Assembly (NCBI GenBank): GCA_001604215.1
Contig: LVAX01000092.1
Span: 72,985-136,984 of the forward strand
Origin: Clostridiales bacterium Firm_18
Lineage (GTDB): Bacteria > Bacillota > Clostridia > Monoglobales > Firm-18
Length of the DNA: 64,000 nucleotides
Reading direction: 5' to 3'
Shown here: piece by piece, positions 55,174 through 56,235 of the stretch
How the letters are laid out: each line of letters opens with the position of its first letter
Position numbering within the stretch: the stretch's first letter is position 1
Made by a program: the position numbers and the translations under genes
Notes under the pieces: generated by a model
What the model was told of the DNA's origin: nothing
Database searches by the model: none
The model's input: only the letters and a program-made list of their open reading frames with translations

Positions 55174-55587
55174 TTATTCGTTAATGGCTTCAATGCCTTG
55201 TCTTTTTAATTCTTCAAGCTTATCCCGCATTTGTTTTAGTATTTCCGGGGGATGTCCTTTCCAATCCAATACTTCACCTACAACACGCAGGGGATATTTA
55301 GTACGGTAGGAACGCGTTGGGTTACCGGGGAATTTCTTATCCGTAAGATTAGGATCATTTTCAAATTCGCCTGTCGGCTCCACAATGTAGATACGACCAA
55401 CTCCATCTCCAACCGCAAGTTCTGCGCCCCATATTGCCGCATCCATAGTTGCTGTCAAATAGACAAAGTTGGCTTTTTTTCGCTCACCATAATTAGAATT
55501 ATAACCGACTTCTATTAAATCACCTGTTTTCAAGTCAGCTTTTGTACCATGGTAAAATGGTCCGCTGTCTAAGACTTCATTGCACAT
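55174..55587 (-). CDS. arr: NAD(+)--rifampin ADP-ribosyltransferase
   Basis: GPFYHGTKADL, WGAELA, IYIVEPTGEFENDPNLTDKKFPGNPTRSYRT and DWKGHPPE match the Arr family along the whole 137 aa. Confidence 0.9.
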   Translation of the reverse strand: MCNEVLDSGPFYHGTKADLKTGDLIEVGYNSNYGERKKANFVYLTATMDAAIWGAELAVGDGVGRIYIVEPTGEFENDPNLTDKKFPGNPTRSYRTKYPLRVVGEVLDWKGHPPEILKQMRDKLEELKRQGIEAINE

Positions 55588-55606
55588 GCTAATACTCCTT
55601 TTATTA

Positions 55607-56188
55607 TTACAATTCTTTCATCGTCAGCCCATGTTTATTACACGCAAAGTATAGCTTTCCGCGATTATACTTTGGAAACCGCACTTCACTCGCCTGCTCA
55701 GGGTAAAGCTTTATAAGCATAACACGATCATATGCTACAAATGCGACAAAGCTAATATAATGGTCTTTACTCATATCATGTGAAAAAGTAATGTAATAAT
55801 CGTTTTCAACTGTTTCAATGTTTAAATCATATTCTTCATTATTTTGCAGCTCTAAACCGGTTAGCTTGCGCCCGCAGCAGGCTACGTCCGCTTCTGACGT
55901 TGCTGTAATAACATTCCCGCAATCCCGGCACATATAAAATTTAATCTTTTTCATATTTCCTCCGTTTGTATTGTTGGATTCCAAATCCCCCGATAATATT
56001 TTTTCAATGTGTACGTTGAATATTTGTGACAGTTCACGAAGCAGGGATACGTCCGGACAGCCTAAACCCCGTTCCCATTTGGAAATCGTTTTATCACTGA
56101 TATTCATAATGTCTGCAAGCTGTTTCTGCGTCATCTTTTTTTCATTTCGCAGCTTAAAAATCAAATTGCCTACTTTATTGCAATCCAC
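55607..56188 (-). CDS. XRE-family HTH regulator fused to a desulfoferrodoxin-like domain
   Basis: N-terminal HTH (MTQKQLADIMNISDKTISKWERG). The C-terminal half has CRDCGNV...ACCG (desulforedoxin-like) plus SHDMSKDHYISFV and ACNKHG (neelaredoxin-like). GTG start. Confidence 0.7.
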   Translation of the reverse strand: MDCNKVGNLIFKLRNEKKMTQKQLADIMNISDKTISKWERGLGCPDVSLLRELSQIFNVHIEKILSGDLESNNTNGGNMKKIKFYMCRDCGNVITATSEADVACCGRKLTGLELQNNEEYDLNIETVENDYYITFSHDMSKDHYISFVAFVAYDRVMLIKLYPEQASEVRFPKYNRGKLYFACNKHGLTMKEL

Positions 56189-56206
56189 GCGATCACCCCT
56201 GCATCT

Positions 56207-56235
56207 ATTATAACGGCATCTGTTTTAAAAAGCAA
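56207..56235 (-). promoter_or_regulatory. Sigma-A-type promoter of the XRE-arr operon
   Basis: On the minus strand: TTGCTT, a 17-nt spacer, then TATAAT. Confidence 0.5.

Follow-up and report, generated by a model that had tools for sequence, protein, structure and literature searches.

A conserved operator-like motif and a candidate iron-centre regulator of the HTH-Dx-SOR class in a predicted two-gene operon with arr

Proteins of the desulfoferrodoxin (Dfx) type are homodimers, as in the 1dfx and 2ji1 structures, and Lys48 is required for fast catalysis in the superoxide reductase (SOR) of D. baarsii. A class named HTH-Dx-SOR, in which a helix-turn-helix (HTH) domain is fused to desulforedoxin (Dx) and SOR domains, was defined by SORGOdb in 2011 by architecture alone and comprised 19 proteins (Lucchetti-Miganeh et al., PMC3116461); our literature search found no paper on the function of these proteins. 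Here we analysed a 64,000-nt stretch of Clostridiales bacterium Firm_18 (contig LVAX01000092.1, hereafter the window), in which a gene of this class lies directly 5' of arr, the gene of a rifampin-modifying enzyme. We propose that the two genes form an operon on the minus strand (55123-56252), made up of a modular regulator cassette, whose product would be an autoregulated iron-centre sensor, and a captured arr gene, and we assign this reading a probability of about 0.55. The features on which it is built are as follows.

56233-56252, minus strand: operator-like motif ACTCTACGGAGCGTTTATTG, an exact match to the family motif
56239-56252, minus strand: dyad core ACTCTAC GGAGCGT, imperfect, palindromic at 10 of 14 positions
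56207-56235, minus strand: sigma-A-type promoter, with -35 TTGCTT at 56230-56235, a 17-nt spacer and -10 TATAAT at 56207-56212
56194-56199, minus strand: ribosome-binding site GGGGTG of the regulator gene, as read from the sequence
55607-56188, minus strand: regulator gene of the HTH-Dx-SOR class, 193 aa, GTG start (open reading frame list)
56000-56155, minus strand: XRE-type HTH, residues 12-63 (Pfam HTH_3)
55859-55948, minus strand: desulforedoxin-like Fe(Cys)4 module, residues 81-110, C87-x2-C90-x13-C104-C105 (alignment)
55610-55858, minus strand: SOR (neelaredoxin)-like beta-sandwich, residues 111-193 (alignment to 2ji2, family columns and fold match)
55595-55600, minus strand: ribosome-binding site AAGGAG of arr, within the 19-nt gap between regulator and arr
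55174-55587, minus strand: arr, NAD+-rifampin ADP-ribosyltransferase, 137 aa (NCBIfam NF033144, Pfam Arr-ms)
55123-55162, minus strand: stem-loop 3' of the arr stop codon, an 11-bp stem and then AUUUAUAGUUGUCUU (RNA fold)

When the 130-nt stretches 5' of the regulator gene were aligned for 93 loci, a family motif emerged, AACTCTACGGAGCGTT(T/G)ATTG, which is found 63-72 nt 5' of the regulator start in 89 of them and is invariant at nearly all positions. The 64-kb window holds a single exact match, where none is expected by chance, and this match, with its ACTCTACGGAGCGT core, falls inside the interval 56189-56272 that the sequence-only reading had put forward for a DNA-binding assay. The recognition region of the HTH domain, NISDKTISKWERG, is almost invariant family-wide in a 36-sequence alignment, from which the invariant HTH columns were taken, and this near-invariance fits that of the operator. 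In four relatives with 81-99% identity, the DNA homology starts exactly at the motif and stops just 3' of the regulator stop codon, suggesting that motif, promoter and regulator gene are conserved as one cassette.

The motif runs into the promoter, its 3' TTG being the first three bases of the -35 hexamer. The TTG with a 17-nt spacer behind it is shared by 124 of 131 non-redundant lineages, and a -10 element matching TATAAT at four or more of six positions by 123, compared with 36 of 131 shuffled controls. A consensus scanner missed the window promoter, whose -35 hexamer matches at only three of six positions. The family-wide comparison supports the TTGCTT/TATAAT pair, present as it had first been read from the sequence, as a real promoter in front of the two genes. 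Transcription is predicted to start near 56200, leaving a leader of about 12-14 nt, with the dyad centred near -45.5. A sigma-B-like GTTTA promoter was rejected, as it has no matching -10 element and a TATAAT-like hexamer stands 17 nt after the TTG instead; a riboswitch or leader RNA was likewise rejected, since Rfam matched tRNA only and the leader is so short.

We further searched metagenome and viral contigs with the motif alone, as the 20-mer ACTCTACGGAGCGTTKATTG, and obtained 123 loci. A full-length regulator follows in 75 of these and a partial one, cut by a contig end, an internal deletion or a frameshift, in 19. Motif and promoter were also found directly 5' of a CatA-like acetyltransferase gene (five loci) or of a flavodoxin-like FMN reductase gene (two loci), and 5' of genes for a small conserved protein, a DUF2087 protein and a CatA-like enzyme (six loci). 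Their presence before non-regulator genes points to a small regulon beyond autoregulation. The exact 20-mer was seen as well in three IMG/VR viral contigs, identical where inspected and with no regulator nearby, and this is probably a single chance occurrence. At seven loci the regulator gene is frameshifted or internally deleted with motif and promoter intact, one of them (L117) having an N-terminus, MDCNN, joined straight to the Dx part. Such decay of the regulator seems to have recurred in some lineages of the human gut.

To describe what the cassette carries, we took a census of 141 non-redundant regulator lineages, 130 of which had enough 3' sequence. The gene next to the regulator was distributed over these 130 lineages as listed below.

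Acetyltransferase of the CatA-like type, mostly at 0-15 nt: 18
Small unknown protein, with or without DUF2087: 11
Nitroreductase: 3
FMN reductase (FMN_red): 3
Isochorismatase-type hydrolase: 2
Arr, in the lineage of the window: 1
AraC/GyrI-like regulator, UvrA-like ABC protein, DUF2087 protein: 1 each
Heterogeneous set of other same-strand genes, within 150 nt: 30
Same-strand gene at a greater distance: 21
Gene in convergent orientation: 37
No open reading frame downstream: 1

Enzymes that modify small molecules recur in this position. Nitroaromatic or phenolic compounds are the substrates of nitroreductases, acetyltransferases and quinone-reductase-type FMN reductases. Rifamycins, the substrates of Arr, are naphthohydroquinones, and many substrates of the cargo enzymes are redox-cycling xenobiotics, which makes a SoxR-like logic the most coherent hypothesis for the cassette. 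A protein of about 115 aa (KEQYKNR..IGGVY..C), a DUF2087 protein (Pfam 1.9e-23) and the CatA-like enzyme recur as a trio under motif and promoter, in the six loci mentioned above, in L091 and L086 and in others; in L105, the DUF2087 and CAT domains are fused in one protein of 329 aa. The small conserved cargo protein has no match in Pfam, NCBIfam or PDB, and a label of it as "GIY-YIG-like" was dropped for lack of support there.

The sequence-only reading had described the regulator as an XRE-type HTH followed by a desulfoferrodoxin-like metal domain, and profile, sequence and fold comparisons agree with it. The HTH was recognised by Pfam HTH_3 with E=1e-15 (57.9 bits, cut-off 23), and the N-terminus MDCNKVG agrees with the family consensus MDCxKVG. 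The C-terminal 113 residues are homologous to an entire desulfoferrodoxin. A profile scan had been suggested for this half, and its outcome was divided: the separate Pfam models Desulfoferrod_N (E=0.073) and Desulfoferrodox (E=0.1) remained sub-threshold, whereas the full-length TIGR00320 (dfx_rbo) profile matched with E=1.2e-8, residues 81-188 aligning to profile positions 4-121 of 125, at a score of 35.2 bits that is far under its equivalog cut-off of 146.9. The homology therefore rests on TIGR00320, on phmmer searches of the PDB, in which whole Dfx chains were matched (D. baarsii SOR 2ji2, E=2.5e-5; 1dfx, 8e-5; range to 1e-4), and on fold comparison. The AlphaFold model (pLDDT 84) found its best Foldseek matches in 2ji2, 1vzg, 1dfx and 1y07 (E=7e-10 to 1e-6), with target TM-scores of 0.68-0.74 over 119-121 aligned columns, so that the structure prediction also asked for does resemble 2Fe-SOR.

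Two further traits of the protein may bear on how it works. Cys3 and Cys44 in the HTH domain (MDC..., GLGCPD) do not vary in the alignment of 36 sequences and are kept in most loci, and they could form a redox-active pair or contact the metal domain; as one is lost without the other in several lineages, they need not be an obligatory redox pair. The linker between HTH and Dx (residues 67-80, 55949-55990) is modelled at a pLDDT of about 46 and carries a near-invariant G-G-N-M-K-K motif, and such a conserved motif in a disordered segment suggests a functional contact.

The residues of both metal centres could be placed by alignment. C87, C90, C104 and C105 align with Dfx Cys10, 13, 29 and 30, with an x13 spacing in the regulator family that is two residues shorter than the x15 of Dfx. 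The motifs picked out in the sequence-only reading, FYMCRDCGNV...ACCG, SHDM, DHYI and CNKHG, are all present, and the latter three align to AHPM, KHYI and CNIHG of Dfx, as that reading had proposed. It had also seen no evident first His ligand (HVPV), rightly so: Dfx EKHVPV aligns to EEYDLN, which places Tyr120 at the position of His49 and Glu119 at that of the catalytic Lys48. The centre II positions of the regulator are Tyr120, His137, His143, Cys183 and His186, the equivalents of Dfx His69, His75, Cys116 and His119 being kept. Without the catalytic Lys and one His ligand, the domain is probably no ordinary, catalytic SOR.

A homologue search returned 6,247 clusters at 90% identity that match the whole query, and relatives are encoded by 574 or more GTDB species representatives, in Clostridia, Negativicutes and aerobic Bacillales (Paenibacillus, Cohnella, Rossellomorea). 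Ligand conservation was judged in the closest 120 clusters (192-227 aa, 65-99% identity) and in 119 representatives at 50% clustering.

Four Dx cysteines: 120/120 close homologues; among representatives, C87, C90 and C104 in 114-115/119 and C105 in 103/119 (His in 11)
First-His position: His in 112/120 close homologues, Tyr in the 8 clusters nearest the window; His in 95 and Tyr in 3 of the 119 representatives
His137: invariant in the close homologues; 119/119 representatives
His143: invariant in the close homologues; 109/119 representatives
Cys183: invariant in the close homologues; 102/119 representatives (Ser in 10)
His186: 111/120 close homologues; 70/119 representatives (Asp in 26)
Lys48 equivalent: not conserved in the close homologues; Lys in 13/119 representatives

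The full pattern, CCCC at centre I and HHHCH at centre II, is found in 57 of the 119 representatives, and an HHHCD set in 21 (15 with CCCC, 6 with CCCH); Tyr variants account for 3. Metal sites that are kept while catalytic residues drift argue for a metal-binding sensor or scaffold over a SOR enzyme. As for possible relatives, C. difficile Xtr was rejected, being a different XRE protein of 47 kDa with another motif (PMC13260099), and in C. thermocellum DAP-seq data we found no motif related to the regulator operator (PMC8457756). A plasmid-borne resistance cassette was also rejected, since 2 of 72,556 plasmid records have a full-length homologue and neither of these is beside a resistance gene.

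Taken together, these results suggest the following working scheme. The sigma-A promoter would drive the regulator gene, and arr would be translated from the same mRNA. The regulator would bind its own operator as a dimer, as expected from Dfx-type domains that dimerise and a site that is a dyad, and would so control its own synthesis and that of Arr; a conserved operator-like motif in the promoter makes control of arr by the regulator more plausible. The Dx-SOR half would serve as an iron-centre sensor rather than as a detoxifying enzyme. Species derived from O2, or compounds that undergo redox cycling (nitroaromatics, and quinone/hydroquinone drugs including rifamycins), may oxidise its iron sites, and the oxidation state of the iron would alter DNA binding and thereby switch the operon. 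That the regulator senses metal, redox state or superoxide is what we infer from homology, and for the sign of control we lean slightly towards repression relieved by the signal.

The Dx-SOR half might instead be a metal-stabilised dimerisation scaffold in a simple autorepressor with no signal input, arr being held at a low homeostatic level. An XRE HTH needs a dimerisation module, Dfx-type proteins would provide one, the catalytic Lys is not conserved, ligand sets drift, and many lineages have no cargo gene. However, nine metal-ligand positions are kept in hundreds of clusters at 50% identity, and substitutions there, such as Asp for His, are conservative and preserve metal binding; this is a tighter constraint than would be expected of a scaffold, and the repeated pairing with detoxifying enzymes points to an inducible response. 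We therefore consider a scaffold unlikely, though it is the alternative we take most seriously. If the domain were a scaffold only, the finding would shrink to an ordinary XRE autoregulator beside arr.

It is quite improbable, in our view, that the protein combines two functions as a "trigger enzyme", an active superoxide reductase and regulator in one, in an operon mainly for oxidative stress into which arr was inserted by chance. The full 2Fe-SOR fold is present, the five centre II ligands are kept in 112 of the 120 close homologues and in 57 of the 119 divergent representatives, and a rubrerythrin gene lies downstream of the regulator in one lineage (L065). Set against this are the Lys48 equivalent, not conserved in the family and Glu in the window, the Tyr at the His49 position, a dfx_rbo score of 35 bits for a cut-off of 147, and the occurrence of the family in aerobic Bacillales. 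SOR enzymes are not typical of aerobes.

The operon itself is compact. The arr gene had been said to start 19 nt downstream of the regulator, and the coordinates confirm this: 19 nt separate the regulator stop codon (55607-55609) from the arr ATG (55585-55587), and a terminator scan predicted none between the two genes. Arr scores 224.9 bits against NCBIfam rifampin_ARR (NF033144; cut-off 130), its residues 9-137 covering profile positions 3-131 of 131, and matches Pfam Arr-ms with E=4e-51. By these matches the downstream gene is a bona fide arr, and rifamycin resistance itself is predicted. The stem-loop at 55123-55162 (-23.5 kcal/mol, z=-4.46 against shuffles) was not called by the simple terminator scan and is the probable end of the transcription unit.

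The partnership of regulator and arr is narrow. Contigs of the window's own species (L009-L011) have arr 3' of the regulator, as does one 90%-identical relative (L012, L013), in which a gene for a small membrane protein lies between. Another 90%-identical relative carries DUF3781 and nitroreductase genes in place of arr, and an 81% relative an unlinked BlaI/BlaR pair. We found arr at the regulator in none of 80 species-level loci and after the regulator in none of 123 motif-selected loci, for which the downstream flank of the regulator was checked, and four other arr lineages with 82-86% identity have neither regulator nor motif. These three results rule out arr as a conserved partner of the regulator. 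The link is limited to the window species and one 90% relative, implying that arr is one interchangeable cargo gene. What had been called an unusual regulatory link therefore stands in part: the promoter motif is conserved, but the HTH-Dx-SOR fusion has been known since 2011 and the coupling to arr is not a family trait. Around arr, we also observed an Imm5-like immunity-protein gene 1-2 kb downstream in two different lineages (L012/L013 and L222), and in L222 an AraC/GyrI-like regulator gene directly 3' of arr; genes for small-molecule defence may thus recur in the surroundings of arr in clostridia.

So narrow a link could also mean that the adjacency is incidental, arr having landed by a recent rearrangement and being transcribed independently, either from a promoter towards the 3' end of the regulator gene or through transcription that continues from upstream. 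Along with the two closely related lineages that share the link and the four arr lineages that lack regulator and motif, the homology with relatives breaks right after the regulator stop codon, and weak promoter-like matches (9/12) lie inside the regulator gene at 55790-55818 and 55757-55784. Yet such internal matches show no excess (22, with 17.1 +/- 3.9 expected in shuffled sequence), the 19-nt gap holds a ribosome-binding site only and no predicted terminator, and many other lineages have a cargo gene 0-35 nt after the regulator stop. We hold incidental adjacency to be improbable. Least probable of all is that the domain senses metal availability rather than redox state, in the manner of Fur or ArsR through Fe/Zn occupancy of the Cys4 or His/Cys sites, since beyond the two conserved metal sites and a single case of a ZIP-family metal transporter gene, directly downstream of the regulator in Monoglobus, the cargo shows no recurring metal-homeostasis genes, and acetyltransferases, reductases and hydrolases dominate.

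Several points weigh against the sensor operon that we favour. We infer binding of the regulator to the motif from their co-occurrence, and another factor could recognise it. A dyad near -45.5 that runs into the -35 element would fit repression or activation alike, since a protein bound there could either obstruct RNA polymerase or recruit it. The Tyr in place of the first His in the window clade makes iron binding at centre II uncertain. The stretch from the end of the upstream gene (56273) to the promoter showed no terminator, so read-through from upstream could also express arr. Since 37 of the 130 lineages have no co-directional gene and another 30 have heterogeneous ones, the drug-modifying theme covers about one-quarter to one-third of lineages. 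The commonest cargo, moreover, had to be downgraded from chloramphenicol acetyltransferase to CatA-like, because its scores of 197.5 and 195.3 bits fall short of the NCBIfam CatA cut-off of 270 (Pfam CAT, 6e-54).

A broader proposal, which we offer tentatively and regard as somewhat doubtful, is that HTH-Dx-SOR proteins are unrecognised Firmicute iron-centre transcription factors with a near-universal operator, counterparts of SoxR in function but with a superoxide-reductase fold, which switch on captured drug-modifying genes upon exposure to oxidants or redox-cycling drugs, so that rifamycin inactivation would be inducible here. The architecture was already known; in our literature search we found neither the operator nor the modular cargo described, and nothing on the Tyr-variant clade or the coupling to arr. 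If the proposal were correct, a transcription factor would have adopted the SOR fold for sensing, which would make it a novel kind of metalloregulator, and a function would be given to a protein class catalogued in 2011 and encoded in at least 574 representative species. Anaerobic Firmicutes would then place Arr, CatA-like acetyltransferases and nitroreductases under one portable and possibly redox-responsive switch, with bearing on the prediction of inducible resistance in gut and environmental Clostridia. With a 20-nt operator that hardly varies, the regulon can be computed for any genome.

The neighbouring genes place the operon in its setting. On the plus strand, a sporulation cluster of spoIIGA-like (52495-53370), sigE (53367-54068) and sigG (54117-54902) genes is followed 3' of sigG by a terminator-like hairpin (54941-54960) and a tRNA-Arg(CCT) gene (55017-55093), and this unit (52495-55093) converges on the 3' end of arr; the source organism is a spore-forming member of Clostridia. 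On the minus strand, upstream of the regulator, lie a BlaI-type repressor gene (59039-59407; Pfam Penicillinase_R, 1.5e-30) and, 3' of it, two paralogous genes, 57514-58929 (with DUF4825) and 56273-57475. Both paralogues begin with a transmembrane segment, ...STSFSE(S/N)GK.AK(K/R)RFENILNTKAKK..., which in the L005 relative is the middle of a single protein of 714 aa that also has DUF4825 and a BlaR-like peptidase domain (M56). In the window, BlaI thus seems to be accompanied by C-terminal sensor modules that stand alone, with the M56 protease domain absent. The BlaI/BlaR pair lies downstream of the regulator in L005 and upstream of it in the window.

Among described systems, the SORGOdb HTH-Dx-SOR class is the nearest, with the same order of N-terminal HTH, Dx and SOR domains in the same Firmicute family. 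The paper that defined it gives no function, operator, gene context, cargo pattern or arr link (PMC3116461), and the window clade departs from the class in its Tyr for the first His and in the family Dx spacing, CxxC-x13-CC rather than x15. The 2Fe-SOR enzymes of D. baarsii (2ji1) and D. desulfuricans (1dfx) share the fold across both domains at a target TM-score of about 0.7; the window protein differs from them in its DNA-binding fusion and in the replacement of Lys48 by Glu and of His49 by Tyr. BcrR, the bacitracin regulator, has an XRE HTH that is 40% identical to that of the regulator over the HTH and is likewise coupled to an adjacent resistance determinant, but it senses through a membrane domain, whereas the predicted sensor in the window regulator is a soluble domain with two iron sites. 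SoxR offers a functional analogy, the proposed shared logic being that redox-active compounds oxidise the metal centre of a transcription factor, which then turns on detoxifying genes, among them those of nitroreductases and flavodoxin-like reductases. In contrast to the window protein, which is an XRE regulator with another cofactor and another operator geometry, SoxR belongs to the MerR family, carries [2Fe-2S] and binds between -35 and -10. The actinobacterial RAE element, which serves rifamycin-responsive control of arr, is likewise a dedicated cis-element at arr; motif, phylum and, where one is known, regulator all differ, and the element of the window tracks the regulator gene, not arr.

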